Notes: generated from the letters alone by a model not told the origin. A stretch of DNA of 63,394 nt, filler included, from 7 parts of 7 records of this genome joined end to end with filler, not necessarily neighbours in it; one strand, 5' to 3'. Positions 20,643 through 46,085 are shown, counted from the whole stretch's first letter. Program-made: numbers and translations.

Positions 20643-20833
20643 GCCCATGAGAGCGCGACTCAGTCCACCGGAGGGGCGGATTGCCGCAGCCGCGAATAAC
20701 GCCGAAAAACCCATTGTTTTCAATTGCTTAAATAGTGTTAGCAGGTTCTTGACAGGCTTATGGGTCACAAGTAGGGTGCGCGCGGCTTGAGGCGGGGTTG
20801 AATGGTTGATGGAACCGGTTTCACAGGTCTTTT

Positions 20834-21253: not shown

Positions 21254-21270
21254 AGATAAGGTCTGGCGAC

Positions 21271-28890: not shown

Positions 28891-30225
28891 ATGGTAATGC
28901 GTATTTTAAAAGATTTAGGAAAAGCTTTTTTTGTAGGAATACTTGTGTTTATTGTACTGGGCTTAATTCAGTATGCTAACGGTTATGAGTTTCAGAGTGG
29001 GAGCGAACTCCTTAAATTTTTTCTTTATAACCAACTATACTCTGTTGTGCTTTATATGCTGAATGCAAATTACTTTGGGTTTTTATTGAAGCAGTTTCCA
29101 AACCAAGTTTTTAAAGCGAAAAACCTTTTAAAAGGACTTTTTGGTGGAATTATAGTTACACTTATAGGCCTATTTTTTATACGCGTTTTTACTGAAGTTC
29201 TTATTGAAGGAAGAGATTTTTCCACATTTATAGCTTCAGAAAAGATCCAATATTATTATATCTCGTTTATCATTTCTATAGTTGTAACCATTATTTTTTA
29301 TTCGGTTTATTATTATAGAAATAAGCAGGAAAGTAAGGTAACAGAGCAAAAAATAATTGCTGGTACTGCTTCAGCTAAATTTGATGCGCTTAAAAATCAG
29401 CTCGATCCACATTTTCTTTTTAATAGCTTGAATGTACTTGTTAGTTTAATTGAAGAAAACCCTCAAGCAGCAACTCGGTTTACTACGTCACTTTCAAAAG
29501 TGTATCGGTATGTACTGGAGCAGAAAAATAAAGAATTAGTGACATTGGAGGAAGAATTGAAGTTTGCTGAGTTGTATATTTCGCTATTGGCAGTTCGGTT
29601 TGAGGATAGTATTATTTACACTCCACCTGTAACATTAAAAGATTCGCAAGCAAAGGTTGTGCCTCTATCGTTACAGCTTTTACTAGAAAATGCGGTAAAA
29701 CACAATCAAGTTACTCCTTCAAAAAAACTTCATATTACCATTACTGAAGAAAATGGAAACTTAATTATAACCAATAACAGTCAGCCAAAACAGGTTTTAA
29801 AAGAAAGTACCGGTGTAGGTTTACGGAATATTCGTGATAGATATGCGCTATTAACAAACCAGCCCGTACTTATTCGAGAAAACAGAAAGGAGTTTAGTGT
29901 AACGATTCCTGTTTTGACTCAAAACATAAAATTTATGAATACACAAGAAACTTTTATTTCAGAAAAAAAATATACGCTAGCTAAAACCAAGGTGGAAAAA
30001 TTAAAAGCATTTTATGTTCACCTTACAATATATTTACTATTTGTACCTGTCTTTATTTACTTAAATTACATTTCAAATGCTGGGTTTCCTTGGGCATTGT
30101 TTCCTATTGTAGGATGGGGATTTGGTGTAATGGGCCATGCAGCTGAAACATTTAATTACAATCCTTTTTTCGGGAAAGATTGGGAGGAACGTAAAATCCG
30201 TGAATTAATGGATAAGGAAGATTAA
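28891..30225 (+). CDS. LytS-type histidine kinase with C-terminal 2TM domain
   Basis: Four TM segments, LKNQLDPHFLFNSLN, LLENAVKHN and GVGL motifs, and a C-terminal 2TM domain ending WEERKIRELM. Confidence 0.93.
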   Translation: MVMRILKDLGKAFFVGILVFIVLGLIQYANGYEFQSGSELLKFFLYNQLYSVVLYMLNANYFGFLLKQFPNQVFKAKNLLKGLFGGIIVTLIGLFFIRVFTEVLIEGRDFSTFIASEKIQYYYISFIISIVVTIIFYSVYYYRNKQESKVTEQKIIAGTASAKFDALKNQLDPHFLFNSLNVLVSLIEENPQAATRFTTSLSKVYRYVLEQKNKELVTLEEELKFAELYISLLAVRFEDSIIYTPPVTLKDSQAKVVPLSLQLLLENAVKHNQVTPSKKLHITITEENGNLIITNNSQPKQVLKESTGVGLRNIRDRYALLTNQPVLIRENRKEFSVTIPVLTQNIKFMNTQETFISEKKYTLAKTKVEKLKAFYVHLTIYLLFVPVFIYLNYISNAGFPWALFPIVGWGFGVMGHAAETFNYNPFFGKDWEERKIRELMDKED

Positions 30226-30228
30226 ATT

Positions 30229-30258
30229 ACAGTTCATCCTTTTAATATTACGATTGGG
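30229..30258 (+). promoter_or_regulatory. LytTR binding site 3
   Basis: ACAGTTCAT-N12-ACGATTGGG. Confidence 0.72.
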
Positions 30259-30324
30259 AGACTTCAATTTTAAAAAGGAACTAAGCTGTATTATTTTTAT
30301 CCTATAATTTAAAACAATCTAAAA

Positions 30325-30630
30325 ATGGAATTTGAAAATAAAGAAAATAAGTATCTTAAAGCTAAAGAACGTGTAGCTGAAATTAAGAAGTTTTACACCA
30401 GTCTTATATTTTATGTAGTATTTATTTGTGCCCTAGCAGGATTAAATTATTATGTAAATGAGCTTCGCCACCCTTGGTTTTTATGGGCAGCATTTGGTTG
30501 GGGAATCGGAATCTTTTTTCAAGCGTTAAAAGCTTTTCGCTGGACACCTTTTATAGGAAAAAATTGGGAAGAAAGAAAGATGAAGCAGTTTATGGAAGAA
30601 GAGGAATACAACAACAATAACTCCAATTAA
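30325..30630 (+). CDS. 2TM domain protein
   Basis: AKERV..IKKFY, WGIG and WEERKMKQFM motifs. Confidence 0.9.
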   Translation: MEFENKENKYLKAKERVAEIKKFYTSLIFYVVFICALAGLNYYVNELRHPWFLWAAFGWGIGIFFQALKAFRWTPFIGKNWEERKMKQFMEEEEYNNNNSN

Positions 30631-30631
30631 G

Positions 30632-30961
30632 ATGAATTATTCAAAAAAAATGAAATTTGAGAGTGCCCAAAAAAGGGTTGAAGCATTAAAAAGTTTTTAT
30701 AAGCATGTACTGGTTTACGGTATAGTAAACATTGCACTTTTCGTTGTTAGAGGACAGATACTTGAGTTTTTTATGAACGAATCAACAGATAAAAACTTTA
30801 TTGAGTGGATAGATTGGAATATTTTAATAGTTCCTATTTTTTGGGGAATTGGTTTGTTATTTCACGCAGCAAAAACGTTTAAATATAAGTTGAAGTTTAT
30901 AAAAAACTGGGAAGAAAACCAACTAAAAAAATTCATAACTAAAGAACAAAACGAACGCTAA
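30632..30961 (+). CDS. 2TM domain protein
   Basis: AQKRV..LKSFYKH, WGIGLLFH and WEENQLKKF motifs. Confidence 0.9.
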   Translation: MNYSKKMKFESAQKRVEALKSFYKHVLVYGIVNIALFVVRGQILEFFMNESTDKNFIEWIDWNILIVPIFWGIGLLFHAAKTFKYKLKFIKNWEENQLKKFITKEQNER

Positions 30962-30963
30962 AA

Positions 30964-31272
30964 ATGGAAACCGAAAAGAGTTTGGCTTATTTAAGAGCAA
31001 AGAAAAAAGTAGAAACACTTAAAAGTTTTTACAGTCATTTGGTGGTTTATTTACTAATTAATACCGCAATCATACTTGTTTCTGCGAATGTTTTTAATGA
31101 TAAACCAATAAATTTTTCACACTGGAGTATGTATTTTACCGCAATGTTTTGGGGTATAGGTTTGGTTTCACACGCACTCTATGTACTCTTTGTTATGAAT
31201 TTTAAAAATAATATTTTTAAAAACTGGGAAGAGAAAAAACTAAAACAATTTCTAGAAGAAGATCAATCATAA
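30964..31272 (+). CDS. 2TM domain protein
   Basis: AKKKV..LKSFYSH, WGIGLVSH and WEEKKLKQF motifs. Confidence 0.9.
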   Translation: METEKSLAYLRAKKKVETLKSFYSHLVVYLLINTAIILVSANVFNDKPINFSHWSMYFTAMFWGIGLVSHALYVLFVMNFKNNIFKNWEEKKLKQFLEEDQS

Positions 31273-31298
31273 AATAATTTACCAGCAACCACAAATTA

Positions 31299-32054
31299 AT
31301 GAATGTATTAATAATTGAAGACGAAAAACCATCTGCACGCTATTTGCAGCGTATGCTAGAAAAACAAGACGTTAAGGTTAGTCAAATGCTTCACAGTGTA
31401 GAAGAAGCTGTAAATTGGTTTCAAAATAACCCACATCCAGACCTTATTTTTTTAGACATTCAATTGAGTGATGGACTTTCTTTCGAAATTTTTGACGCCG
31501 TTGAAGTACACAGCGCCATAATATTTACTACTGCATTTGACGAATATGCTTTGCAAGCATTTAAATTGAATAGTATTGATTATTTATTGAAACCAATTGA
31601 TGAAGACGAATTATATGTAGCAGTTGTAAAGTATAAATCGTTTAATCCAACAGTTCAAAATGTTCAGTTTAATTTTGAGGATATTAAAAAAATGCTTGTA
31701 AACCCTGTAGAAAGAGCGTATAAAAAACGTTTTACAACAAAAATTGGCCAGCATATAAAGATGATTTCTGTAGATGAAATTGAATGCTTCTATTCTGAAA
31801 ATAAAGGCACCTACGCACACACTGTAGACGGACGTAATTATTTGTTAGAAACTACTCTAGAGCAATTGGAGCAAGAGCTTTCGCCAGAATTATTTTTTAG
31901 AATAAGTAGAAAATTCTATATAAATATTGAAGCTATAAAAGATATTATTTCATACACAAACTCACGACTTCAATTAAAATTGAATAACTATAATGAGCAG
32001 GAAGTTATCGTAGCGCGTGAACGGGTGAAAGATTTTAAACTTTGGCTAGAATAG
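31299..32054 (+). CDS. LytTR family response regulator
   Basis: REC domain (IIEDE, FLDIQL, YLLKP) plus LytTR domain (FFRISRKFYIN). Confidence 0.96.
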   Translation: MNVLIIEDEKPSARYLQRMLEKQDVKVSQMLHSVEEAVNWFQNNPHPDLIFLDIQLSDGLSFEIFDAVEVHSAIIFTTAFDEYALQAFKLNSIDYLLKPIDEDELYVAVVKYKSFNPTVQNVQFNFEDIKKMLVNPVERAYKKRFTTKIGQHIKMISVDEIECFYSENKGTYAHTVDGRNYLLETTLEQLEQELSPELFFRISRKFYINIEAIKDIISYTNSRLQLKLNNYNEQEVIVARERVKDFKLWLE

Positions 32055-32056: not shown

Positions 32057-33280
32057 CTATTTTTTTTCTTTATTAATTTCAATTCTATTATCCTGAAACG
32101 AAGAAGGCAACAATTTTGGAATAAATTTCACTAATAAAGGAAGTAAAACACTACCACCAGGAAGCAAAAAAATAGTCAATGACGGAATGCTTTTACAAAC
32201 GTCCAAAAGTTGCTCCTTAACTTTGTTTTTTTCTTCGGGAGATAAATCTCGTAAAGTAGATTGCCCCAAAAGTACAACCAACTCGCCACTTTCTTCCAGC
32301 TCGCGTGCTAAACGGTCTTTATTTCTTATAATTAATAATTTTACAGTTGAAGCAGATTGCTTGTAAAACTGCTTCACAGGGTGCGAATATTCAAAAAGAA
32401 GTATTTTTTCAGTGTATTTTTTTGAAAAATTAGCAAGACACTCCAAGCTATTGTTTAAATCTTCTTCGGAATAATTTAAAGTTAAAACTAATTGCTGTAA
32501 AAACTGATGTTCCGTTTCATCAAGTTTTAAATCTTCCCAAATAGTAAGACAGCATAAATCCAAGATATACTTTCTTTCCAAGGAGTTTTCAGTAATATTT
32601 AAATAGTTTAAACTCTCTAAAAAAGTAGAAAAACTACCATCGGTTTTGGCAACTATATATTCAGATGAGGTTTCGAAAAGCTCAATTAGTAATTTATCGT
32701 ATTTAGATTTTTTCTTTTTAGATTTCAATGTGTAAAAACAAGCTGTAAGTACAATTGTTTCTTGTTGTTTGTAATAGTTTTTGGCATTGCTTGGTTCTTT
32801 TTGCCAATGTTTATAAGCAAGAACATCCAAATATAAAAGTGCATGCGTAAGCAGTGAAATTGTATTTTTCTTTAATAACGAATTTGTTTCTTGCAAGCGC
32901 GCCGATAGAATATGCTCTAAAGTATTTGAAGGACTTTGTGAAAGTGTAAATTTTTGAAAAAAACCTGTTTTACCTTTTTCTATATGCCTGTAAAAAGAAA
33001 GAATATCTGTTATAGCTTCCGAATTGCTGGATTCTGGATTTTGCTGATAAAATTGAAAAAGTAAGGAGTGAAAAAGATTTATTTTTGTGAGTTCTTCTTT
33101 AGTAAGTTTTAAGTTGCCAAGCGATTTTTTTGGTAAGGCAGAAACAGAAACACCATAAATAAACCCAGTGTTTTTAAGCGCTTCATAGAATTTTAAGTTA
33201 GTTTGAAAAGAATCAATTAATTCATTCTTTTCAAAAAGATTTAAAAACTTTAAAATCCAATCGGCTGCAGAGGGGTTCAT
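32057..33280 (-). CDS. LETM1-related (biofilm-associated) protein
   Basis: C-terminal QLLDVCKSIPSLTIFLLPGGSVLLPLLVKFIPKLLPSSF is LETM1-like. MNPSA..WI N-terminus. Confidence 0.82.
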   Translation of the reverse strand: MNPSAADWILKFLNLFEKNELIDSFQTNLKFYEALKNTGFIYGVSVSALPKKSLGNLKLTKEELTKINLFHSLLFQFYQQNPESSNSEAITDILSFYRHIEKGKTGFFQKFTLSQSPSNTLEHILSARLQETNSLLKKNTISLLTHALLYLDVLAYKHWQKEPSNAKNYYKQQETIVLTACFYTLKSKKKKSKYDKLLIELFETSSEYIVAKTDGSFSTFLESLNYLNITENSLERKYILDLCCLTIWEDLKLDETEHQFLQQLVLTLNYSEEDLNNSLECLANFSKKYTEKILLFEYSHPVKQFYKQSASTVKLLIIRNKDRLARELEESGELVVLLGQSTLRDLSPEEKNKVKEQLLDVCKSIPSLTIFLLPGGSVLLPLLVKFIPKLLPSSFQDNRIEINKEKK

Positions 33281-33354
33281 TGAAATATTTATGATTATTT
33301 TAGGCGTTCAAACGCTGGTTTTGCTACGTTAACAAAAGATTAACGTTTTTGAAA

Positions 33355-33383
33355 AAACCATGCACTCACATTTAAACGTAAGT
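33355..33383 (+). promoter_or_regulatory. Putative ECF (SigK-type) promoter of DUF4331 operon
   Basis: AAACC-N17-CGTAAGT. A second copy lies at 36153. Confidence 0.65.
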
Positions 33384-33426
33384 ATAGCGAACAAACAAAA
33401 ATAATTAATAAAAACTAACAAAAAAG

Positions 33427-34113
33427 ATGAAAAATTCAAAACTTTTTGCAGTAATCGGTGGACTGGGCATAGCCGCACTATCGGTATTTTTAATATCTGC
33501 GGATCACATTGACGCACCAGCAGTTGCAGGTACAACAGCAGATATTACAGACTTTTACGCCTTTCAAGGCGAGAACAGTAATAACTTTGTGCTAGCAGCA
33601 AATATACAAGGACTTTTGCCTCCGGGTACTCCTACAGACCAAGCCGAATTTGATGAAACGGTTTTGATAGAATTCAATATTGACAGAAATAACGACCTTA
33701 AAGAAGATTTTGTTATTCAGGCAATAAAACGTGGTGATTCAATGTATTTCTTTGGCCCCTCGGTTCCAGCTATGACAGGCGCACAAAGTACTATTGCTAC
33801 AACTGATCCTATTAGTGTAAAAATTTCTACAAAAGATGATGTTCAGATAACAGAAATGAATGGCATGAAATTTTTTGCGGGACCAAGAGAAGATCCTTTT
33901 TTCTTTGATTTTAACCAATACAACGCAGTGCTTTCTGGTACCGCAACAGGTTTTAACAATCCTGGGGATGATACTTTTGCAGGAACAAATGTATTGAGTA
34001 TTGTTGTGGAATTTCCAAAGGCTATGTTACCAGGTGGAGCTACGGGCGTAAACCCATTTGCAGCAAGTACACCTATCTATAATGTATGGGTAGAGGCTAA
34101 AAGAAAACAATAA
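33427..34113 (+). CDS. DUF4331 family protein
   Basis: Signal peptide, then SADHIDAP, ADITDFYAF, FAGPREDPFFFDF and DTFAGTNVLSIVVE. Confidence 0.9.
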   Translation: MKNSKLFAVIGGLGIAALSVFLISADHIDAPAVAGTTADITDFYAFQGENSNNFVLAANIQGLLPPGTPTDQAEFDETVLIEFNIDRNNDLKEDFVIQAIKRGDSMYFFGPSVPAMTGAQSTIATTDPISVKISTKDDVQITEMNGMKFFAGPREDPFFFDFNQYNAVLSGTATGFNNPGDDTFAGTNVLSIVVEFPKAMLPGGATGVNPFAASTPIYNVWVEAKRKQ

Positions 34114-34141
34114 AAATTGCTAACACTAAAAATTTAAAAAG

Positions 34142-34768
34142 ATGAAAACATTTAAATATATATACCTTTTTGCCGCAATAACAACGTCAGTATTGTTTGT
34201 GCAATGTACCGATGATGACGATAATATAATTACGAACCCAACTTGTACCGATGGAATTTTAAACGGTGATGAAACAGAAATTGACTGTGGCGGAACAGCT
34301 TGTGCACCTTGTGGAGAAGTAGTGGATTTTAGCGGAACTTACATACAGGAAGACCAAATGGGGCGTCCTGGTATAAATACCGTATTTGGATCAGAAGGAT
34401 TTAAAGATGCATTTAATGTTACTGTACCATCTGCAATGCAAGTAGCTTTCCAAGCAAAATTTGAAGCAAAATTATTGGCATTGAATTCTGGATATACTAC
34501 TAATGCTTTAGGTTTAACTGCAGAACAATTCACAACAGTACTTTCTAACGATGTTTTATGGTTAGCTGAAACAGGGATAACTACTTACTTTAACGGAACC
34601 GAAATATTGACTGGTAGAACCTTGAATGATGATGTGATTGATGTATCCTTACTTTTAATTTTTGGAGGTCCTGACGGATCTGAAAATCCAACATTAACAA
34701 GTGATGGAGTGTCAGGTAATGATGCTTCGTTCTCTGCGTCATTCCCATATATGGCTGGACCATTTTAA
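34142..34768 (+). CDS. DUF4331 C-terminal-type lipoprotein with Cys-rich insert
   Basis: Lipobox-like FVQC, then QEDQMGRPGINTVF, GRTLNDDVIDVSL and FPYMAGPF. Confidence 0.85.
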   Translation: MKTFKYIYLFAAITTSVLFVQCTDDDDNIITNPTCTDGILNGDETEIDCGGTACAPCGEVVDFSGTYIQEDQMGRPGINTVFGSEGFKDAFNVTVPSAMQVAFQAKFEAKLLALNSGYTTNALGLTAEQFTTVLSNDVLWLAETGITTYFNGTEILTGRTLNDDVIDVSLLLIFGGPDGSENPTLTSDGVSGNDASFSASFPYMAGPF

Positions 34769-34786
34769 TAAGTAAAGTTTTAATAC

Positions 34787-34816
34787 AAAAAAGAGAGCGT
34801 TTCGTTCTCTTTTTTT
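34787..34816 (+). terminator. Intra-operon hairpin/terminator
   Basis: AAAAAAGAGAGCG-TTT-CGTTCTCTTTTTTT. Confidence 0.65.
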
Positions 34817-34866
34817 GTTTAAAATATATTTAAATGAAAAATTTGACCAACACAAATACCTTCAAA

Positions 34867-36144
34867 ATGAAAAATTTAATACCCTTATTATTTTTTGCTG
34901 TTTTTATTGGATGTCAAGAAAAGACTGAAAAAATAACCGATAGTAAAGATTATAACCCGTATTTAATTACCACTAACAATCCTTCAAAAGAAGCACTTTT
35001 ATCTGAGTTTGAATTTTGGGAGAAAAGATTCAATAACGATTCAACTAACTTGATGGAAATGACCCGTATGTCTAGCCTTCATGCAAGAATGTTTGGAATA
35101 AACGGAACTATTTCAGAATTAAAAACTTCAGAAGAATTAATTAAAAAGGCATACGCTGTTTCAGCACGTAATAAAGATACCTATTTGCGCAGTTTAGCAC
35201 ATAATTATATTTCACAACACCGTTTTAAGGAAGCAAAAGTTTTATTGGATAGCGCATATACCTATCCAGATAATCATAAAGAAACGGAGATGATGCTTTT
35301 TGATGTGGCGATGGAATTGGGCGACTATCAGCTTGCAGATACGCTGTTGGGAAAAGTAAAGGCTCCAAAAAATTTTAATTATTTAATTCGTTTGGCAAAA
35401 TGGAGCGACCATAATGGAAATCTTGATGCAGCCATAAAATATATGGAACAAGCTAAAACAATTGCTGAAGCACGAAAAGACAAAAGTTTAATGGTTTGGG
35501 TTTATAGCAATATTGGCGATTTTTATGGTCATGCTGGACGTATTCAAGATTCTTATAAAAGTTATTTGAATACATTGGCAATTCAACCAGACAACCATTA
35601 TGTAAAAAAACAACTTGCATGGATGATTTATTCTCTTGAAAAAAATACCAAGGAAGCAAATCGTATTTTAGATTCCGTACAGGTAAATCATAATATACCT
35701 GATTATCATTTATTGAAAGCTGAAATGGCTGAATATGATGGCGATATTTCTAAAGCAAACAATGAATATGAAAAATTTATAAAAGCTACAGATAATGTGG
35801 CCTATGGTGGAATGTATACTACCTACCTTATATCAATTTATGCAGAAAAGGATCCAAAAAAAGCACTTGAATTAGCCGAAAAAGAAATTATGAATCGCGC
35901 TACACCAGAAACGTATCAATTGCTTGCATATGCCCAATTAAAATCTGGCAATAAAGAAGTTGCTCTTAATACAATTGAAACGTTTGTTGTTGGAAAAACT
36001 TCAGAGCCTAATGCGCTTTTTCATTCAGCTTTAATATATAAAGCAAATGGAATGAATGCTGAGTTAAATTCATTAAAAACTGAACTGTTAGAAGCATTTT
36101 ATGAATTGGGACCTTTAAAAGCAAAAGAAATAAAAATGTTATAA
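34867..36144 (+). CDS. TPR lipoprotein (cell surface protein)
   Basis: Lipobox FIGC followed by multiple TPR-like helical repeats. Confidence 0.85.
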   Translation: MKNLIPLLFFAVFIGCQEKTEKITDSKDYNPYLITTNNPSKEALLSEFEFWEKRFNNDSTNLMEMTRMSSLHARMFGINGTISELKTSEELIKKAYAVSARNKDTYLRSLAHNYISQHRFKEAKVLLDSAYTYPDNHKETEMMLFDVAMELGDYQLADTLLGKVKAPKNFNYLIRLAKWSDHNGNLDAAIKYMEQAKTIAEARKDKSLMVWVYSNIGDFYGHAGRIQDSYKSYLNTLAIQPDNHYVKKQLAWMIYSLEKNTKEANRILDSVQVNHNIPDYHLLKAEMAEYDGDISKANNEYEKFIKATDNVAYGGMYTTYLISIYAEKDPKKALELAEKEIMNRATPETYQLLAYAQLKSGNKEVALNTIETFVVGKTSEPNALFHSALIYKANGMNAELNSLKTELLEAFYELGPLKAKEIKML

Positions 36145-36152
36145 CAAAATGA

Positions 36153-36180
36153 AAACCAAACTACTACTTTTTCCGTAAGT
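36153..36180 (+). promoter_or_regulatory. Putative ECF promoter for downstream sRNA
   Basis: AAACC-N16-CGTAAGT, the same motif as at 33355. Confidence 0.65.
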
Positions 36181-36184
36181 GTTA

Positions 36185-36302
36185 ATGAGGTTGGTTATCT
36201 ATCGAATAATTGATAGATATTTTAAAACCGGAAATACCGGTTTTCAGAGTTTTTTTGTTAGTTGGAGCGCCCGTCATAATTTTGATGGGCGCTACTTTTT
36301 TT
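36185..36302 (+). ncRNA. Putative ECF-dependent small RNA
   Basis: Own promoter, hairpins at 36196-36219 and 36224-36244, a single-stranded U/G-rich seed at 36245-36265, and a terminator stem at 36266-36293 followed by a U-tract. Confidence 0.6.
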
Positions 36303-36325
36303 AATATTTTTAAAAATATATTTTC

Positions 36326-36357
36326 AAAAAAAAACTTGAGCGTGAACTCAAGTTTTT
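36326..36357 (-). terminator. Terminator for sigma/anti-sigma operon
   Basis: AAAAAAAAACTTGAG-CGTGAA-CTCAAGTTTTT. Confidence 0.75.
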
Positions 36358-36377
36358 AAATATAACTTTTCTTTTTC

Positions 36378-37175
36378 TTAAATAGTTATTGTTCCTAACG
36401 TATATAATTGTGATAGGGTAGGTATTTTACTTCCTCCAGCAGGTTCTAAAGTTATTCCAAAAGCTTCAGGATCTGGGAAATTTTCGAACTTATAAATTCC
36501 GTTTTCGCCGGCTTCATTTTCGGCAGCAATTAAACCTACACTTGTTGGCGTAAGAGGTTCCATTTTTAACGACCATAGTTGGTAAACTTTTCCTGGAGGT
36601 GGCGTAGGTAAACCTTTAACATCTATGTAAGCTATGTTGTTTTTTTTATCTAAATACACTTTTGCATAAGCTTCAGGTGCAACAGCTTGATTTCCGGGAA
36701 GTGTATAGGTTTGGTATTCTTTAGACCTTAATACATCCAGTATTTTAGTGTTAGCTACTAATTGATTTTCAATAACATTTTTATCTTCTTTTAAAACGGT
36801 GTTTTCTGTTGAAGTTATTTGTAGTGAATTATTTAAATCATTATTTTGTTTTAACATCCATAAGATACCACCCATAAATAGTATAGCGGCTGCCCAACCT
36901 GTAATGGCTGACCAATTAAGTGTTTTTACCTTGGTATCACCAATATTCTTAACATATCTAATTGAGTTGAGAATGTGTGTCCATGTCATTGCTTGCACGG
37001 GAGGCGCAACATTTTCAGCAATGTGAATAAGAGATTTTTCAATTTGCTCAACTTCTCGCTTCACTTCTTCGCTATTGGCAATTGCAGCTTCCACTTCAAT
37101 AACTTCTTCTTGTGGCAATGCGCCACAAACGTACATTTCTAATTTCCCTGATGCTATAATTTCTTCAGTATTCAT
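36378..37175 (-). CDS. Anti-sigma-K factor, RskA family
   Basis: N-terminal SGKLEMYVCGAL, one TM segment, and C-terminal KVYQLW...AFGITLEPAGGS..PT. Confidence 0.92.
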   Translation of the reverse strand: MNTEEIIASGKLEMYVCGALPQEEVIEVEAAIANSEEVKREVEQIEKSLIHIAENVAPPVQAMTWTHILNSIRYVKNIGDTKVKTLNWSAITGWAAAILFMGGILWMLKQNNDLNNSLQITSTENTVLKEDKNVIENQLVANTKILDVLRSKEYQTYTLPGNQAVAPEAYAKVYLDKKNNIAYIDVKGLPTPPPGKVYQLWSLKMEPLTPTSVGLIAAENEAGENGIYKFENFPDPEAFGITLEPAGGSKIPTLSQLYTLGTITI

Positions 37176-37179: not shown

Positions 37180-37713
37180 TTATCCTAGTACCATTACCCG
37201 TAATTCATTTATACAGGTTCTGTTTCTTGTTTTTAAAGTTCCTAAAGGTATCTCAAGTGTTTTTGATGCTTCCGCTTGTGTATATCCTTTAAAATATAAA
37301 AGGTCAATTATTTTTATACATGCTGGTTTTAAGGCATCTACAAATTTTTTGAGACCAATTGCATTTGTTTTTGTGTTTAAGCTATCTGAGGATGATAGTA
37401 TATCTACGAAGTTTGTGGTGCTTAGGTTTTTTTTAGTGTTTTTAAATGCTTTTGACCTAGTTTGATCTATAGCTGTATTTCTTGCAATGTTTAATAGCCA
37501 AGTAAAAAACCGTCCTTTATTTACAGCATAAGAGCCGGAATTATTCCATACCTTTATGAATACGTCTTGTAGCACTTCTTCAGCAACACTTTCATCTAGT
37601 ACAATACTGTATATTATTCCATAAATAGCTTCACTATACATGGTGTATATGCGGGAAAAGGCTTTCTCATTCCCGTTTTGCATCGCTATGATGAGATCAT
37701 TGGGTTGTTCCAT
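37180..37713 (-). CDS. ECF sigma factor (SigK-like)
   Basis: AEEVLQDVFIKVW, FTWLLNIARN.AID and IPLGTLKTR motifs. Confidence 0.95.
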   Translation of the reverse strand: MEQPNDLIIAMQNGNEKAFSRIYTMYSEAIYGIIYSIVLDESVAEEVLQDVFIKVWNNSGSYAVNKGRFFTWLLNIARNTAIDQTRSKAFKNTKKNLSTTNFVDILSSSDSLNTKTNAIGLKKFVDALKPACIKIIDLLYFKGYTQAEASKTLEIPLGTLKTRNRTCINELRVMVLG

Positions 37714-38025: not shown

Positions 38026-40300
38026 ATGAAACAAACTAATTGGATTTTATCCATAACTCTACTCTGTTTTTTTTGTAGCAATGTTGCAATTGCTCAAAAT
38101 TACACAACGGCAATCAATAAACAATTAAATGACCTAGCTGCCCAAGATAAATTGGCCCCCCAAGATGCTAATTGGATTTTAAGCTCACATCACACCAGTT
38201 CTATTAGTGGAGTGGAGCATGTATATTATAGTCAAAAATTCAACGGACTTGAAGTATACGGTACCGCATCTGGTGTACATTATCTTCCTAATGGGCAAGT
38301 AATCTCTAAAAACAATAGTTTTATAAAAAATGTAGCACAGAAAGTTTCTGGTTCTTCTTCTCCAGGATTAACTCCTGAAGAAGCAATTCGTTCCGCAGCA
38401 ACTCAGCTAGGATATAAAATTGTAAAACCCATAAGCGTGTTAGAGAGTAAAAAAGGAAACGGTAAAGAGTTTCTTTTAAGCGATGGTGGAATATCATCAT
38501 TACCTATTCCTGCAAAATTATTGTATATTATTACTAAAAATGATCGTGTAGCATTAGCTTGGGATGTTTCAATAAAAAATATTGAACCAGGAAGTGGCGA
38601 ATGGTGGAGTTTAAAAGTAGATGCTACTACAGGAAGTATTATCGATAAAGTTAATTGGATGCTAAGCTGTAGCCCTGGTCATGACCATGATCATGACCAT
38701 GATTCAAAAACGCTAAATTTCAATGACAATTTATACGATATTCCAAATTATAAGGAGACTCTAGCTACTAAACCAGCTGCATGTACAACTTGTTACGAGG
38801 TGTTTGAAATGCCTAAGGAAAGCCCATATTATGGCGATAGAACAATCGTAAATTCTCCAGCAAACCCCATAGCATCTCCTTATGGTTGGCATGATACCAA
38901 TGGTGTCGCTGGTGCAGAATATACAGTTACCAGAGGTAACAATGTAAATGCTTTTGATAATGTTACAGACTTTCAACCAGATGGTGGCGCTGATTTAGAT
39001 TTTTCAGGCTTTCCATTTTCACAAACTTATACGAATACCAATCAATATGAGTCTGCCTCAATTACTAATTTGTTTTACTTGAACAACATTTATCATGATA
39101 TCATGCATTTTTACGGTTTTGATGCTCCAGCTGGGAATTTCCAAGAAAACAATTATGGAAATGGTGGTGCTGGAAGCGATTCTGTGAATGCACAGGCACA
39201 AATGGGTATAGTGTGTAATGCTTTTTTTGGAACACCTGCAGATGGTGGAAACCCTGTAATGGAAATGTATGTATGTGATGATAAAGACGGTGATTTTGAA
39301 GCAACTGTTGTATTTCATGAATACTCACATGGTACTTCAAAGAGGTTAACAGGAGGTGCGTCTAATATAAATGTCTTGTTTAATAATGAACAAATGGGCG
39401 AAGGCTGGAGTGATTTTTATGGAATAGTATTTACTATTAGGTCTAGTGATACTGGAGAGACACCACGTGCTATTGGAAATTACCTTAAAGGACAGGGAAT
39501 CGATGGTATAGGAATAAGAACTTTTCGTTATTCTACAGATATGACCGCTAATCCTCAAACATATAATTCTATTAAAGGTACGGTAGGAGCTCATGCCCTT
39601 GGTGAAGTATGGGCTGGAATGCTTTGGGAGCTTACTTGGGGTTTAATAGACGAACACGGGTTCAATGATAACCCTTATGAATTTACAGGCGATATAGCAC
39701 AAGACAAAGGAAACACAATGGCTGTTGCAATTGTAACTGAATCATTAAAATTACAACCAGGTAGCCCAGGATTTGTAGATGGAAGAGATGCTATACTTGC
39801 AGCAGATCAAGCAATTTATGGTGGTGCAAACGCATGTATTATTTGGAAAGCTTTTGCAAAAAGAGGTGTAGGTTATAGTGCTAACCAAGGTTCTTCAAAT
39901 AACAGAAACGATGGAACTGAAGCCTTTGATTTGCCTGCTCCAGAAACCACAGACCTAACTGATATTTGTGTTGGAAGCGAAGTAACAGTTACAGCAACCC
40001 CAATAAGCGCATCTAGCACCATAAACTGGTATGATGCAGAAACGGGAGGAACTTTATTGTTCACTGGTGCTTCATATACTTTTACCCCAACAGTAAATAC
40101 AGATCTTTATGCTGAAGAAGTACCTGCAACTGGCGCTGGCTGTTTTACAAGAGCACACACACAGGTTCTTGTAGATGCTATTAATCCAGAAATTGTATGT
40201 CCTGCAAATAGTGTTGTTGAAGTAAATCAAGGGGAGCAATATACATTGCCAGATTATACTACAGCTGCAACAGCAACAGATAACTGTACTACTTCTCCTG
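38026..40300 (+). CDS. M36 (fungalysin) metallopeptidase, 3' truncated, probable T9SS substrate
   Basis: Signal peptide, FTP/PepSY propeptide, ASPYGWH, HEYSHG, EGWSDF, FAKRG and C-terminal Ig-like domains. Confidence 0.92.
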
Positions 40301-40400
40301 NNNNNNNNNNNNNNNNNNNNNNNNNNNNNNNNNNNNNNNNNNNNTTAATTAATTAANNNNNNNNNNNNNNNNNNNNNNNNNNNNNNNNNNNNNNNNNNNN
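40301..40400. other. Artificial contig linker
   Basis: N44-TTAATTAATTAA-N44. Confidence 0.99.
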
Positions 40401-40404
40401 AATT

Positions 40405-40480
<76 letters not shown>

Positions 40481-40643
40481 ATTTCAACAACGTGTCGTCG
40501 TTGAGAGAACGAAATTATAGCAAGAAAATTTTTTGTGTCAAACGTTTTTGCAAAATAACTTCATTTATTTTCGTTGTGCCTAAAAAATGTGCAAACCCAA
40601 GCCTGTCGCGGCTTTCGGGCTAGTTGGGTTTTTCAGGTTCAAG

Positions 40644-41348
40644 CTATTGATTCTGTTGTGAAATGTAGTTTTTCCACCCGCGCATGCGCAAATCGCAGGC
40701 TGGGCATTCCCCGCAACCAAAACCCCAATCGTGTTCGTGTGTTCGATCGCCTGTGTAACAGGTGTGGGTGTCGCGAACAATAATTTCAAGCAATTTCTTG
40801 CCGCCCAATTGTTCGCCAAGCTGAAATGTTTCTGTTTTGTCGATCCACATTAGTGGTGTTTCAAAGCGGAAGGTGCTGGCCATACCCAGGTTGGTGGCCA
40901 CCTGAAGGGCTTTTAATGTGTCTTCGCGGCAATCCGGGTAGCCAGAAAAATCAGTTTGGCACATGCCGCCCACCAGGGTGGACAATCCCCGGCGATACGC
41001 AACCGCAGATGCAATCAGGAAGAACACCAAATTGCGGCCCGGCACGAATGTATTGGGCAGGCCGGTTTCATTCAATTCGATTTCTCGATCTTCAGTCAGC
41101 GCACAATCGGATATTTGCCCCAGCCAGCTGAGATCAATCACGCGGTCTTCGCCCAGCTTGTGTGTCCATTGGGGAAACTGTTCGCGCACCCTTTCCAGCA
41201 CTGTTAGCCTGCATTCCAGTTCAATGCGATGGCGTTGGCCATAGTCAAACCCGATGGTTTCAACATGGTCAAATTTGGACAAGGCCCATGCCAGGCAAAC
41301 GGTGCTGTCTTGTCCGCCAGAAAACAGCACTAGTGCTTTTCTATTCAT
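40644..41348 (-). CDS. queC: 7-cyano-7-deazaguanine synthase
   Basis: [30 protein letters not shown] and CGECPAC motifs. Confidence 0.97.
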
Positions 41349-41395
41349 GATTGGTGCGAAAAAATGCAGTAAAACGCTATTTTAGCCTTACAAAC

Positions 41396-41422
41396 AAAAA
41401 ACCCCGCCGTGTTGCGGGGTTT
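41396..41422 (-). terminator. Rho-independent terminator after LuxR gene
   Basis: AAAAAACCCCGC-CGTGTT-GCGGGGTTT. Confidence 0.75.
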
Positions 41423-41446
41423 CTCGTGGAAGTAAGCGGTGCCGGC

Positions 41447-42181
41447 TTAGTTGGCAATGCCCGCTGAAATGGCGTATTTCACCAGCTGAACGCTGGAATC
41501 CAGGTTCAGTTTTTGCAGCAAGCGGGCGCGGTAGGCGTCGATGGTGCGTGGTGACACTTTTAAAAGCTCGGCGATTTCGCGACGCGGACGGCCTTGGGCA
41601 ATCAAGGTCAATACCTGTCGTTCACGGCGAGTCAGTTGGGCGCCTTCGTCTTGCTCGGCCAGGGTTTGCATCTGGCTGCTTTGTTCTTGGCGGTCGTGTA
41701 GCGATGTGCCGGAATACATGCGGTTGCTGACCAGCTCAGGCGCAACATAGCGATTGCCGGTAGCAACAGTGTCGATGGCTTCGCGCAGTGTTTCTACGGA
41801 GGACTGTCGGCTTACGCAGGCCCAAACCCCGGGTTTGAAGGCCATGGCCAAAATATCTTGTGCGGTTCCTTCGCACACCAGCACCACGCGCACGTCGGAA
41901 TAACTGGCGCCGATGTGTTGCACCACGGTTTCGCCGTGTTTGTTGCCTTTTTCGATGGTAATGACCACGATCCGGGTCTCGGCGCTTGCCAGGTGGTTGT
42001 CGATTTCTTCCAGTGTAGTGCGGTTGGTGACAAACATTGGTTGAAGGCTGACTGTTCTGCCGGGGGTTTGTGTGTTTAACCCGGAGTCACGGGGCGTTGA
42101 TGGTCTGCCGGTCAAGCCCTTGTCATTTTTCATAGTCCCGCCTATGTGTGGCTGGCTTGGCCAGCTCGGAATTAAGGTCAT
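41447..42181 (-). CDS. LuxR/NarL-family regulator with degenerate receiver domain
   Basis: HTH LTRRERQVLTLIAQG...EIAELLKVSPRTIDAYRARLLQKL. The receiver lacks the phospho-Asp. Start is uncertain. Confidence 0.88.
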   Translation of the reverse strand: MTLIPSWPSQPHIGGTMKNDKGLTGRPSTPRDSGLNTQTPGRTVSLQPMFVTNRTTLEEIDNHLASAETRIVVITIEKGNKHGETVVQHIGASYSDVRVVLVCEGTAQDILAMAFKPGVWACVSRQSSVETLREAIDTVATGNRYVAPELVSNRMYSGTSLHDRQEQSSQMQTLAEQDEGAQLTRRERQVLTLIAQGRPRREIAELLKVSPRTIDAYRARLLQKLNLDSSVQLVKYAISAGIAN

Positions 42182-42548
42182 GTACGCCCCGCTGTTGGTA
42201 TCGATTCGGTTGATGCTATGAAGGTTTGTACTTCACCCCTAAAAAATTGGATTCAATTGGATGTAGGTAAATTCGGGCGGGTTAATCACAATGCGGGGGA
42301 GGTGATTTTTTAGCGATCTATGTAAGCAAATAGACATTATTGGTACTGTTCGGATGTCAGAACTTTTGCTAGTATCCCTAGACTAGGTGATACTTAGGAG
42401 TTACATCCCCTTAACAGGGTGACCCTATTCAGTGGTTTGAACAGTAAAACTCGGCCTTTTTGATGAAACCAAAGTTCAGCTCAACTGTAAATTAACAGTA
42501 TCAGAACGTATCAAAAACACGGATTACTTCATCTCGGGGACAAGCAGG

Positions 42549-43184
42549 TTGAGAGAAGAACTCGCTTCTTTAATTGAACGAATTGCAAATCGCGATCGAA
42601 AGGCGTTTGAGGAGTTGTATCAACTCACGTCCCGAAAGATGTTTGCAGTGGCGTTGCGCATTGTTCGAGAGCCCGGAATGGCTCAGGATGTGCTGCAAGA
42701 TGCCTATATCCGCCTGTGGCGATATGCTCATACATTCAACAATAAACTTTCTGCCCCCGAAACATGGTTGCACCAAGTGGTTCGAAACAGGGCGCTTGAC
42801 CTGATTGCCCAACACAGCCACACGGTGAATTCAATTTCTCTTGACCAGTTTTCTGATCAGGATGATGAACCCAATGAATTGGTTTTTGAAGCCCACTCGG
42901 TGAGCAGTGATGATAAGGAAACCAGCCGGGTCATGCAGGCATGTGTTCAGCGCCTGGACGGCAAGTACCGGCAGGTTCTTACTTTGGCATACACGCACGG
43001 CATGAGCCATGCGGAAATTTCCGATCATCTGGATGTACCTCTGGGTACTGTGAAAACCTGGGTTCGTCGTGGTTTGATTGAATTGAAAACGGTGTACGAC
43101 GAATTTCAGACGGAAGGTTTGGCCACGCTTGCGGCGAACAACACCCGCCGGCAAGACGCCGAACAATCTGGATATATGGCGTAG
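42549..43184 (+). CDS. ECF sigma factor (SigK-like)
   Basis: AQDVLQDAYIRLW, TWLHQVVRNRALD and MSHAEISDHLDVPLGTVKTWVRRG motifs. Confidence 0.94.
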   Translation: MREELASLIERIANRDRKAFEELYQLTSRKMFAVALRIVREPGMAQDVLQDAYIRLWRYAHTFNNKLSAPETWLHQVVRNRALDLIAQHSHTVNSISLDQFSDQDDEPNELVFEAHSVSSDDKETSRVMQACVQRLDGKYRQVLTLAYTHGMSHAEISDHLDVPLGTVKTWVRRGLIELKTVYDEFQTEGLATLAANNTRRQDAEQSGYMA

Positions 43185-43194
43185 GAGAGACCCA

Positions 43195-43611
43195 ATGACT
43201 GACGATGAAAAAAACTGGCTGGCAGCTGACTATGTGCTGGGTGTCATGCGCGGCACAGAACGCACTGCTTTCGAGGGGCAATTGAAGCTTGATCCGGTTT
43301 TGGCCAAGTCGGTGTTGAACTGGCAGGAAAGGTTGAGCCTGATCGATACCAAGCCGCAGGTGTTGTACCCCACGATGTCGGAATCTGAAGTGGATGCTGC
43401 ATTGAGCAATGTATTTGATCGTGTGTGCAAAGCCATTGATGCCCAAGCGGACGTTAAAAGCAGGCTTGACAACCCCTTGGCGAAGATGACGCGTGAACAG
43501 TTGGCGGGTATGCGCCCAGCGGTGGTGCGTTTGATTGCTTCTTATCTGGTATTGCTTGAAAGACTGAAAGCGCAGCAGTTGCGCATGGCCGGTTCGGCTG
43601 GCGCTGTGTAA
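43195..43611 (+). CDS. Short anti-sigma-like protein (RskA N-terminal domain only)
   Basis: AGGAG SD, then LAADYVLG....ERTAFE..L..DP......WQERL. No TM segment or C-terminal sensor. Confidence 0.75.
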   Translation: MTDDEKNWLAADYVLGVMRGTERTAFEGQLKLDPVLAKSVLNWQERLSLIDTKPQVLYPTMSESEVDAALSNVFDRVCKAIDAQADVKSRLDNPLAKMTREQLAGMRPAVVRLIASYLVLLERLKAQQLRMAGSAGAV

Positions 43612-43625
43612 CCTGGGAACTCGCA

Positions 43626-45560
43626 ATGTCGGTTAAATATTTGTTCAAAGAAAGACTGGAAGCACTTTGGAACTTTGGTTTGAAGTCCGAGCGTTCGGGC
43701 GATGACAAAGCGGGTCAGGCGAGCATTGAGCCCAACCAATCCAAAACTGTTGAAGGTGTCATTCGAAACGCGCTTCCCTTGCTCAAGCGTGCTGCACTGC
43801 TGTCGATATTCGTCAACCTTGTTGCGCTGTTTCCTGCGGTGTTTTCCCTTCAGGTCTATGACCGGGTTATCTACCGTTCAGGCCTGAATACGCTGACCGC
43901 CTTGTTGATCGGCATGGGTATTTTGTTGGCGGCAGATTTGATTTTGCGTTCATTTCGGGCCCGTGTGTTGCGCGTGTCGGCAGTAAAAATTGATGGCCAG
44001 ATCGCCAGCAAACTGATGAACAAAATATTGTCCATTCCCTTGCGGCAACTTGAGGCGCGTTCCACTGCGGCCTGGTATTCCTTGTTTAAAGACGTGGACA
44101 CCGTGCGCGTGGTGTGGAGCGGCGCGGTGGCCATGACCATTCTCGATTTGCCATTCGCTATTTTGGCCATCGGTCTGATTGCCACCATCGCTTTGCCTGT
44201 GCTGCCTGTGCTGCCTGTGGTGTTGATTGGTTTGATGTGCCTGGCGGGTTTGTCTTGGTACAGTTCGGGTGAATTCCGCAAGCGCCGTGTTGAAGAATTC
44301 TCGCGCGCACGCCGCCGTGACGAAGTGTTGGCCGAAGTGTGCCGTGGCCGTGAGGCCATCAAAAGCCTGGTGCAAGATGATTCTGCCAAGCGGGCCTGGG
44401 TGTCCAGCTACAACTCCTGGGTTCAGGAATCGTTTCAGAAAAACGGTGAAATGGAAGACCAGCGCGAACTGTCCATTTCCATCATGTTGTGCGTGAACGT
44501 GGCCATTACTGCAGTGGGTGCGTATGCCGTGATCAACCAGTGGATGACCGTGGGTGGTTTGATTGCATCGAACATGCTTGCGGCCAAGGCCATTGGCCCG
44601 TTGGCTGCATTGACTGGCCATTGGCGATCGATTGCCCATTCCCGCGAGGCCACTGATCGCCTTAACAAAGTGTTTGCGGCGGATGAAGAAAAGCAGCACA
44701 CCGGTTTGAATCTTCCAATGCCCTCTGGCGCACTGCGACTTGAAAATGTGAGCTACCAACACGTGGGCGCGCAAAAAGAAGTGGTGAAATCTGTTTCTGC
44801 CCAAATTGGTCCCCGCGGAATTTATGGTTTGGCGGGTGATAACGGTGCGGGCAAATCGACGTTGCTGAAATTGTTGCGCGGCCTGTATGAACCGCAGGGC
44901 GGCAGGGTGCTGTTGGACGAATATGATTTGTCGCAGTTTTCCCGGCAGGAGCTTGCAAAATGGATCGGCTTTTTGCCACAAACATCGCAGTTGTTCGAAG
45001 GCACTATCGTTGAGAATCTGCGCCGGTCTAACCCGGATGCTAGTGACGAGCAGATTCTTCTTGCGGCCAAGCGTTCCGGCGCGCATGAATTCATCGCGAA
45101 AATGCCCGATGGTTACATGACGCAGGTGGGCGAAGGCGGCAACCGTTTGTCGGGTGGCCAGCGCCGCCGCGTGGCCATTACCCAAGCTTTCTTGTCGGAT
45201 GCGCCGGTGTTGTTGCTCGACGAGCCCACGAACGATTTGGACTTCGCGGCCGAAACACACCTGATGGCGGTTTTCAAAAGCCTGGCCACGGTGAAAACCA
45301 TCATCATGGTGACGCACTCGGTTCGCTTGATGTCGATTTGCGACAAAATTATATATTTGGACAAGGCGTCCAAGCTGCATGTTGGGTCAACGCCTGAAAT
45401 GTTGAAGTTGCTGTACGGTATTTCGGTTCCGAAACCTGTTCCTGCTGCTCCCAAAGCGACTTCGCAGCTTGGCGCAACCGACACCGTAAAACCCCTTGGC
45501 ACAGTGGGTGCGGAAGGCCAGATCAATTCTGATGTAGGCGGCAAAGCCGCCCAAGCCTGA
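43626..45560 (+). CDS. Type I secretion system ABC permease/ATPase
   Basis: FSLQVYDRV, ILDLPF, GDNGAGKS, LSGGQ and LLLDEPT motifs. No C39 domain is evident. Confidence 0.93.
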   Translation: MSVKYLFKERLEALWNFGLKSERSGDDKAGQASIEPNQSKTVEGVIRNALPLLKRAALLSIFVNLVALFPAVFSLQVYDRVIYRSGLNTLTALLIGMGILLAADLILRSFRARVLRVSAVKIDGQIASKLMNKILSIPLRQLEARSTAAWYSLFKDVDTVRVVWSGAVAMTILDLPFAILAIGLIATIALPVLPVLPVVLIGLMCLAGLSWYSSGEFRKRRVEEFSRARRRDEVLAEVCRGREAIKSLVQDDSAKRAWVSSYNSWVQESFQKNGEMEDQRELSISIMLCVNVAITAVGAYAVINQWMTVGGLIASNMLAAKAIGPLAALTGHWRSIAHSREATDRLNKVFAADEEKQHTGLNLPMPSGALRLENVSYQHVGAQKEVVKSVSAQIGPRGIYGLAGDNGAGKSTLLKLLRGLYEPQGGRVLLDEYDLSQFSRQELAKWIGFLPQTSQLFEGTIVENLRRSNPDASDEQILLAAKRSGAHEFIAKMPDGYMTQVGEGGNRLSGGQRRRVAITQAFLSDAPVLLLDEPTNDLDFAAETHLMAVFKSLATVKTIIMVTHSVRLMSICDKIIYLDKASKLHVGSTPEMLKLLYGISVPKPVPAAPKATSQLGATDTVKPLGTVGAEGQINSDVGGKAAQA

Positions 45561-45649
45561 TGAGCGAGGGCAGGGAAATCATGAAGCCAAACAATGCCTT
45601 GACCGAAGTGGGTAAAAACGACCCAGTGCCTTATGAGTTGCCCGCGCTG
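45560..45649 (+). CDS. 5' fragment of next operon gene (probably HlyD-type adaptor)
   Basis: ATG overlaps the ABC stop (TGATG) and the frame is open to the contig end. Identity is inferred from context only. Confidence 0.45.
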
Positions 45650-45749
45650 NNNNNNNNNNNNNNNNNNNNNNNNNNNNNNNNNNNNNNNNNNNNTTAATTA
45701 ATTAANNNNNNNNNNNNNNNNNNNNNNNNNNNNNNNNNNNNNNNNNNNN
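45650..45749. other. Artificial contig linker
   Basis: N44-TTAATTAATTAA-N44. Confidence 0.99.
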
Positions 45750-46085
45750 GCTTTACCCTTGGCAACAGTTGCAGGAACGGCAGTTGTAGTTGCAACAAGT
45801 ACAGATTTAAGCCCTGTAATAACGTGGGCATTGGCTATAATTGCTGGTGGCGGAACTGCGGCTGCAATAAAAGGGAATGTTTCAGCTGCGCGACTCACAT
45901 CAACCGCAACAACAGGCGGAATCGCGAACCCAGTTATAAGTACAGTAGAAACTGGCACCTCAATAGTTATGGCATTTGCCTCTATATTTGTTCCAGTTAT
46001 AGCATTTTTGTTAGTCATTTTTCTGTTTTTTGTGATATTTAGATTTTACAAAAAGCTTCGGAAAAAAAGATTGCCAAGAAATTAA
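45750..46085 (+). CDS. DUF4126 membrane protein, 3' part
   Basis: [19 protein letters not shown] and [19 protein letters not shown] motifs. Confidence 0.85.

Follow-up and report, generated by a model that had tools for sequence, protein, structure and literature searches.

A conserved structured RNA of about 115 nucleotides (nt) lies directly behind a small operon for two DUF4331-family proteins and a TPR lipoprotein in the 63,394-nt stretch of DNA analysed here (the window: seven parts of seven records of one genome, joined end to end with filler). We read it as a base-pairing small RNA (sRNA) dependent on an extracytoplasmic function (ECF) sigma factor, with feedback on its own operon that varies between lineages, and we give this reading as a whole a probability of roughly one half. 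According to it, a neighbouring sigma/anti-sigma pair (SigK-like and RskA-like) would switch on the operon and the RNA together, the RNA being made from an ECF-type promoter of its own directly behind the DUF4331-DUF4331-TPR-lipoprotein operon. A U-rich single-stranded stretch, CAGAGUUUUUUUGUUAGUUG(A/G), would then pair with A-rich initiation regions that have no Shine-Dalgarno (SD) sequence, blocking initiation in trans. The cistron reached by this feedback would depend on the lineage: the leader of the third gene (gene 3, TPR) in several clades and that of the first (gene 1, DUF4331) in the lineage of the window, where a C-to-T change would have converted an older gene 1 match at 12 of 13 positions into a perfect 13-mer. 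The parts of this reading differ in strength. It is probable, judging from the sequence comparisons below, that the RNA acts through its putative seed; feedback on the operon in at least some lineages has about an even chance, and repression of DUF4331 translation in the window organism is tentative, with the odds somewhat against it.

The RNA consists of two hairpins, a single-stranded linker holding the putative seed, and a terminator stem, in this order:

36184..36302, + strand: small RNA, about 115 nt, 5' GAGGUUGGUU (covariance model R1 match at 36184-36297, 115.3 bits)
36195..36219, + strand: RNA hairpin 1 (predicted fold)
36224..36244, + strand: RNA hairpin 2 (predicted fold)
36245..36265, + strand: putative seed, near-invariant single-stranded stretch CAGAGUUUUUUUGUUAGUUGG (alignments A1 and A2)
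36266..36302, + strand: intrinsic terminator, an 11-bp stem (36266-36293), two bases and a U7 tract (36296-36302) (prediction, covariation)

Compared with 200 shuffles, the fold has a z-score of -6.3. Used as a query, the TPR protein retrieved 78 related loci, from Aequorivita, Ulvibacter, Marixanthomonas, Patiriisocius, Rasiella, Cochleicola, Luteirhabdus, Jejudonia, Dokdonia, Aquimarina and others. R1, a covariance model built from 24 Aequorivita sequences, was searched against 53 of the 79 sources and, at E < 1e-6, located the RNA immediately after the TPR gene in 52 loci as well as in the window; run over all 79 sources, the model gave weaker matches at the same position in L029, L077, L071, L072, L067 and L075. 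Pairing was counted in a model-fitted alignment of 50 distinct sequences and 28 pairs, which biases the counts towards the fitted structure: 95.8% of cells were paired, as compared to 84.3% in shuffles, none of which (0/500) reached the observed value. Both sides had changed in 25 of the 28 pairs, 10 of the 11 terminator-stem pairs covaried, and sliding the partners by one to three columns dropped pairing to 37-49%. MAFFT with RNAalifold on 49 sequences recovered almost no structure, the hairpins being misaligned, and the covariance-model alignment was used instead. While the flanking helices vary, the linker CAGAGUUUUUUUGUUAGUUG is invariant or almost so among the RNA copies, and the 21-nt single-stranded stretch is near-invariant across 49 aligned sequences. 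The sRNA posited by an earlier note on this DNA is thus, with high confidence, a real structured element conserved in marine Flavobacteriaceae, as its R1 matches in the window and 52 loci and the covariation of its pairs attest. In a sample of this family the RNA was matched in 18 of 151 genomes, mostly once per genome. It is a new family without an Rfam counterpart: an Rfam 15 cmscan of 32800-36800 (E <= 10) gave five weak matches, all far below the gathering score and none within 36150-36310.

The operon and the RNA are each preceded by an ECF-type promoter motif, and the sigma and anti-sigma genes lie just beyond the RNA on the opposite strand:

33355..33382, + strand: ECF-type promoter of the DUF4331 operon, AAACC-N17-CGTAAG (motif search)
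33427..34113, + strand: gene 1, exported DUF4331-family protein, N-terminal part of the profile (PF14224, E 2.1e-23)
34142..34768, + strand: gene 2, DUF4331-family protein, C-terminal part of the profile (PF14224, E 3.1e-11)
34867..36144, + strand: gene 3, TPR lipoprotein, likely start MKNLIPLLFFAVFIGC (Pfam TPR families)
36153..36179, + strand: ECF-type promoter of the RNA, AAACC-N16-CGTAAG (motif search)
36378..37175, - strand: anti-sigma factor, RskA C-terminal domain, convergent with the RNA (PF10099, E 2.2e-18)
37180..37713, - strand: ECF sigma factor, SigK-like (Pfam Sigma70_r2/r4, Sigma70_ECF)

The RNA promoter begins 9 nt past the gene 3 stop codon and the RNA would start about 40 nt past it, a synteny kept in 52 loci; promoter and RNA core occur together in the window and 53 loci. 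The pattern AAACC-N16/17-CGTAAG has three matches in the window versus 0.14 expected. A loose promoter scan of the first 2.0 Mb of the largest contig of the window's closest relative (L001; 95% TPR identity, identical gene 1 leader, near-identical RNA) gave 78 matches, and in those 2.0 Mb the full motif was seen in a promoter-like position only before the operon and the RNA. At the level of this motif the operon and the RNA share a promoter type, in line with the earlier note's inference that one sigma factor induces both. An ECF-like motif precedes gene 1 in 63 of 75 loci (47/52 with the RNA and 16/23 without it), so the operon promoter type is more widespread than the RNA. Because the two motifs are identical and the sigma gene is adjacent, the SigK-like factor presumably reads both promoters, and we infer an operon transcription start at about 33388-33390. 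The best NCBIfam match of the sigma gene is SigK, under its cutoff, and the anti-sigma gene matches NF052375 at 100.5 bits (cutoff 100). There is no terminator between the gene 3 stop and the RNA, and read-through transcripts could carry the RNA as a 3' untranslated region (UTR). Contigs from four sequencing runs reached only fragments of genes 1 and 3, or were plain DNA, and do not bear on the RNA. The third window match, to a loose form of the promoter pattern (41811-41836, - strand), lies in GC-rich DNA and is probably due to chance.

Complementarity to the seed within the operon is enriched at the leader of gene 3. Among 51 distinct gene 3 leaders, 25% reach a duplex energy (E, in kcal/mol) of E <= -14, as compared to 1% of 140 other leaders and to 0% when the seed is reversed or shuffled; counted over 52 rows, six have runs of 11-14 nt and twelve have E <= -15. 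The 8-mer ACTAACAA is found in 9/51 distinct gene 3 leaders of RNA-bearing loci versus 5/1714 background leaders (Fisher p = 1e-11, ignoring shared ancestry), the background being all leaders called by a crude longest-open-reading-frame (ORF) rule in the 2.0 Mb of the closest relative. The same 8-mer occurs in none of 22 gene 3 leaders from loci that lack the RNA and in one of 41 gene 1 leaders. Ten of the 51 leaders contain ACTAAC, without exception in sense (10 versus 0 antisense) and in two registers, at -21 and -7. Seed-complementary gene 3 leaders fall into at least three clades of the TPR tree (an Aequorivita subclade, L057/L062, and L059), this being a quick tree of 72 of the 79 rows from which those without a clean gene 3 call, L008 and L027 included, were dropped. 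Gene 3 leaders of the L005 or L027 type carry CAACTAACAAAA, and in L019 and L020 the pairing takes a further register that spans the start codon. An operon-wide scan at <= -16 gave 23/52 loci with the real seed versus 12/52 with the reversed one, an approximately twofold difference with its excess at the gene 3 leader. These counts suggest that the gene 3 leader is the better-supported site within the operon, in lineages other than that of the window. Leaders of the neighbouring genes were rejected as targets: sigma-factor leaders contain A-runs, yet only 8% of 48 reach E <= -14, and none of the anti-sigma and M36 peptidase leaders do.

The match that first drew attention to the RNA lies before gene 1, where two sites can be recognised:

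33413..33425, + strand: 13-nt site AACTAACAAAAAA, perfect complement of the RNA's single-stranded stretch
33390..33402, + strand: second, imperfect seed-complementary site AACAAACAAAAAT in the 5' UTR (sequence; used in the cofold)

Positioned between hairpin 2 and the terminator stem, 36251-36263 of the RNA (TTTTTTGTTAGTT) is the exact reverse complement of 33413-33425, which stops one base (G33426) short of the gene 1 ATG at 33427. The antisense match described in the earlier note is therefore exact over its 13 nt; the extra G-U pair mentioned there is possible as well, T36250 facing G33426, and the RNA segment, which the note took to be unpaired, is so in the centroid fold (mean unpaired probability 0.66). 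The 13-nt duplex has an energy of -14.4 kcal/mol, all of its pairs being A-U except two G-C pairs. Cofolding the RNA with the gene 1 leader gives a ddG of -14.1 kcal/mol and, as an alternative, a two-site pairing that also draws on the upstream site. The 13-mer and its complement are the sole two sites in the window at no more than one mismatch, and at least two such matches occur in 10 of 100 window shuffles. The site spans -14 to -2 of gene 1, over the upstream adenines. In Bacteroidota, upstream adenines serve initiation in place of an SD sequence (PMC7366714, in its accessible parts), at -3, -6 and -11 to -15 (PMC7366714; PMC6847099, likewise). The placement agrees with the earlier note's description of an A-rich, SD-less initiation region (accessible parts of PMC7366714).

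Several observations weigh against our reading, some of them concerning this gene 1 match. In the closest relative, whose leader is identical, the gene 1 leader takes 27th place among 1714 when sorted by duplex energy, a ranking that comes from one genome (2.0 of 2.9 Mb) with crude ORF and start calls. At E <= -14.4 there are 30 leaders with the real seed versus 40 with the reversed seed (16-58 with twelve shuffled seeds), and the fraction of 41 distinct gene 1 leaders at E <= -14 is 0.12 with the real versus 0.15 with the reversed seed. The 13-nt run is found in just two of the 52 loci that have both the RNA and a called gene 1 start, the window and L001; the longest run in the remaining 50 is at most 10 nt. 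Elsewhere in Aequorivita the corresponding site, AACCAACAAAAAA, matches at 12 of 13 positions with a C-A mismatch and pairs at -9.8 kcal/mol, a value that 16-35% of 60-nt windows drawn at random from that locus match or better. The gene 3 leader of the window has decayed to GACCAACACAAAT (-9.7 kcal/mol), and in about half of the Aequorivita loci neither leader has a strong site. Dokdonia variant seeds match their own gene 3 leaders in L064 and L072 (10 and 11 nt) but not in the sisters L067 and L071, so pairing with the own operon is not strictly maintained. Across 20 genomes, the 17-mer seed complement at up to two mismatches gave 100 matches, of which about 19 are the RNA gene, versus 176 for a backward control.

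Taken as an exact string, the gene 1 match is thus rare; thermodynamically it is unremarkable, and at gene 1 it shows no specificity for the orientation of the seed. Runs of at least 13 nt to the 23-nt seed occur in 2/1714 leaders, namely that of gene 1 and, with a run of 15 nt, that of a secreted protein of 861 aa, versus none with the reversed seed; matches at 12 or more of 13 positions occur in 8/1714 leaders with the real seed versus 12/1714 with the reversed one. Measured against chance, the result is mixed, the exact 13-nt run speaking for the match and the energy rank against it. Most Aequorivita have AACCAACAAAAAAG before the gene 1 ATG, with C at the variable position, where the window lineage has T and L004 has A. 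Genera other than Aequorivita have unrelated gene 1 leaders without a comparable match, yet their seed is near-invariant. Since C-state relatives surround the window and L001 in the TPR tree, the perfect 13-mer is, on that tree, a derived state reached by a single C-to-T substitution. We would regard the gene 1 match as a young, lineage-specific candidate feedback site rather than a conserved function. The expectation that it would persist in orthologous loci failed, with the perfect match in 2/52 only, and the feed-forward loop of the earlier note can be kept in a modified form, supported by the complement enrichment at the gene 3 leader in other lineages and not by gene 1 as the conserved site.

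Stronger seed complements exist outside the operon. One Aequorivita genome has a 19/20 match in the bamA coding region (L084:1501-1520, G003; -23.1 kcal/mol), and -19 kcal/mol is reached by 9 of 49973 sliding genome windows. This bamA site codes SQ(I/V)TKKLWEQ; its energy is -18.9 in L189 and -20.3 in L190, and it is weak elsewhere, at -11.2 in the window's closest relative and -7.3 kcal/mol in Ulvibacter. The 15-nt perfect complement before the secreted 861-aa protein lies 20-35 nt 5' of its ATG (L083:1501-1520; G001 contig 2, about 1765070), and its look-alikes in two other genomes have a different context. Pattern searches for conserved targets in 5 and in 20 genomes gave no recurrent start-codon site, the recurrent matches being an other-strand 3' UTR and a lysine-rich coding tail, and neither the leaders of the 2.0 Mb nor the 20-genome 17-mer search showed a global excess of seed complements.

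Given these results, the reading preferred here has to be weighed against several others. The strict form of the earlier proposal, with the DUF4331 initiation region as the principal conserved target of a dedicated incoherent feed-forward loop, agrees with the perfect 13-nt match at -14 to -2, with the promoter type common to operon and RNA, and with the 12/13 matches kept across Aequorivita. We consider it improbable, in view of the missing gene 1 match outside Aequorivita, where the seed is invariant, of the reversed seed scoring gene 1 leaders equally well, and of the specific enrichment at the gene 3 leader instead. Less remote, and still doubtful, is the explanation that the RNA is a real ECF-dependent regulator whose targets lie solely outside the operon, the 13-mer being a low-complexity accident. 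Its candidates would be other exported or envelope mRNAs, for example bamA or the secreted 861-aa protein of the closest relative. In its favour, the gene 1 leader stands only 27th/1714 in the energy ranking, A-rich leaders pair with any U-run in the reversed-seed control, a single change at a position that may be C, T or A separates the perfect match from the common state, and stronger sites are found elsewhere (the 15-nt run in another leader of the closest relative; bamA at 19/20 and -23.1 kcal/mol). Coincidence fares less well with the rarity of the 13-nt run (2/1714 leaders, 0 with the reversed seed), with a match that falls within the same small regulon and exactly at an initiation region, and with the recurrence of own-operon complementarity at gene 3 in several clades; moreover, the outside candidates are unconserved too, bamA for its fall to -11.2 and -7.3 kcal/mol and the 15-nt site for its look-alikes in other contexts.

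Another explanation dispenses with base pairing: the element could be a structured operon 3' end acting as a stability or termination module, or its U-rich stretch could be kept for protein binding or titration. Read-through from gene 3, with no terminator before the RNA, would carry it as a 3' UTR; the 21-nt invariance exceeds typical seed needs; in five genomes an unrelated conserved gene has a similar U-run with GGUUGGUUG ahead of its terminator; and the pattern searches of 5 and 20 genomes found no conserved mRNA target. We think this improbable as well, since the RNA has its own ECF-type promoter, conserved 9 nt past the stop codon in 53 loci and the window, its covarying hairpins with a fixed linker follow the pattern of a seed-bearing sRNA, and sense complements are enriched in the gene 3 leader only where the RNA is present. 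Least likely by far is a role at the DNA level, as a common protein-binding site or through a guide RNA of a dCas12f-sigma complex. On double-stranded DNA, a sequence and its reverse complement are one and the same site, and an RNA-guided sigma-E system does exist in Bacteroidetes (PMC13472631, in its accessible parts). However, no Cas12f or TnpB was found among twelve ORFs scanned between 28891 and 40356, where other Pfam families were matched; gene 1 has its own promoter motif, the leader copies are all complementary to the RNA (10 sense, 0 antisense), and the match is just 13 nt long and lineage-specific. To our preferred reading of an ECF-dependent sRNA with lineage-varying feedback one could add that the target moves between cistrons over evolution while further envelope targets, bamA for example, keep the seed constant, an extension that we find unlikely on present comparisons. 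If true, this moving-target circuit would combine feed-forward and feedback in a manner undescribed in Bacteroidota.

Some further observations concern the RNA itself. A small-protein reading of the 39-codon frame open through it (36185-36304) was rejected: alignments of the relatives show that most lack the ATG (GTTGAGG or ATTGAGG) and that the frame is broken by length changes of 1-2 nt in the U-run and loops. Pairing of the conserved 5' GGUUGGUU with the leader AACCAAC, at -9.4 kcal/mol, was equalled by about 15% of background leaders and is not significant. The model has a second, weaker match (53 bits) in another context, at L187:2870-2993 (G042 contig 8), laid out as 5' UGAGGUUAAGG, one hairpin, AUAGAGUUUUGUUAUUAG and a terminator, without an ECF-type promoter; this element is possibly a sibling RNA whose seed is related. 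Five genomes (L216, L226, L227, L228, L229) have a conserved gene, encoding a Ser/Arg/Thr-rich tail, whose 3' UTR reads AGUUUUUUGGUUGGUUG followed by a terminator, and this sequence resembles both conserved stretches of the RNA. Within the window, 57651-57738 (- strand) matches the RNA model weakly (E 0.025), probably by chance.

Two more features of the operon deserve mention:

34787..34816, + strand: terminator-like GC hairpin with a U tract, in the gap between genes 2 and 3 (motif in 56/75 loci)
33328..33345, + strand: direct repeat GTTAAC-N6-TTAACG, directly 5' of the operon -35 element (kept in most related loci)

The hairpin, with which weak Rfam matches on the opposite strand coincide, may attenuate read-through into gene 3. 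This suggests that gene 3 could be expressed discoordinately, in which case a separate site at the gene 3 leader would have a purpose. The gene 3 ORF opens at 34834, where the ATG is unconserved (ACG in L001), and the true start is most likely 34867, with a lipoprotein signal peptide. The direct repeat is kept across genera and is absent from the RNA promoter; it may be the site of a second regulator, the LytTR protein from the upstream gene being one candidate. That protein, a response regulator, belongs to a separate upstream unit (28891-32054) together with three small 2TM-domain proteins and a 2TM-containing histidine kinase of the LytS type. Directly 5' of the LytTR gene's ATG, eight related loci (L002, L005, L008, L009, L013, L014, L015, L037) have tandem 6-7-nt repeats, CAACCAT in five or six copies or elsewhere GAAACCT or GAAATC, with unit and copy number depending on the species; the window does not have them. 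Other neighbours encode a LETM1-related protein and an M36 peptidase. The GC content of the window is 48-64% in 1-8000, 14001-22000, 40001-46000 and 60001-62000 and 30-37% in the remainder, which suggests that the high-GC blocks are foreign DNA or reflect a chimeric assembly. The DUF4331/RNA locus falls in the low-GC part.

To our knowledge, almost nothing is known of RNA regulators in Flavobacteriia, and our literature search, of which the papers were accessible in part, turned up neither a described ECF-dependent sRNA from Bacteroidota nor a paper in which DUF4331 is mentioned. The locus is a compact module of a sigma/anti-sigma pair, a small exported-protein operon and an RNA with a fixed 21-nt single-stranded stretch. 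As such, it could reveal by what means base-pairing RNAs affect initiation regions that lack an SD sequence and depend on adenines, and whether the alternative-sigma regulons of Bacteroidota have built-in RNA feedback, with the species differences in the complementary cistron serving as natural experimental controls.

MicA, RybB and MicL are sigma-E/ECF-dependent envelope sRNAs of Enterobacteria. Bacteroidota, as far as we know, lack Hfq. FoxJ of Fusobacterium provides a further comparison case of a sigma-E/ECF-dependent envelope sRNA, according to the accessible parts of its description (PMC11005410). The RNA described here resembles these four in having an ECF-type promoter, in its co-induction with a sigma regulon (here at the level of the motif), in a short conserved single-stranded stretch, in a Rho-independent terminator (here predicted), and in candidate targets among exported or envelope protein mRNAs. 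It differs from them in that it shows no sequence or Rfam kinship to any of them, its host belongs to the Bacteroidota, its sigma factor is SigK/RskA-like rather than RpoE/RseA, its A/U-rich seed would address SD-less A-rich leaders, and some of its candidate targets lie within its own regulon. The guide RNAs of dCas12f-sigma-E (PMC13472631, as far as its text was accessible) likewise link a Bacteroidota ECF sigma factor to a small RNA matching DNA by a regulated gene; here, by contrast, the neighbours include no dCas12f gene, the 13-nt match lies 3' of a recognisable promoter, and the architecture is the three-hairpin one of an sRNA. GibS of Bacteroides thetaiotaomicron, a trans-encoded RNA that pairs with SD-less initiation regions and whose targets were tested experimentally (PMC7366714, accessible parts), shares with our RNA a conserved single-stranded region for such initiation regions, here a predicted one. 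The two differ in that their sequences are unrelated, the GibS seed is at the 5' end, and the accessible parts of the paper report no ECF promoter for GibS. Operon 3'-end autoregulation is known from OppZ and CarZ of Vibrio cholerae, which are released from the mRNA by RNase E, without a promoter of their own, and inhibit translation by pairing with their own transcript (PMC7398697, accessible parts). Our RNA has the same position at an operon 3' end, and their regulation of internal cistrons parallels the gene 3 leader matches; processing of read-through transcripts could possibly release additional RNA here too. Unlike OppZ and CarZ as described in those parts, it has its own ECF-type promoter, so that its predicted, lineage-variable pairing would join feed-forward regulation to feedback.

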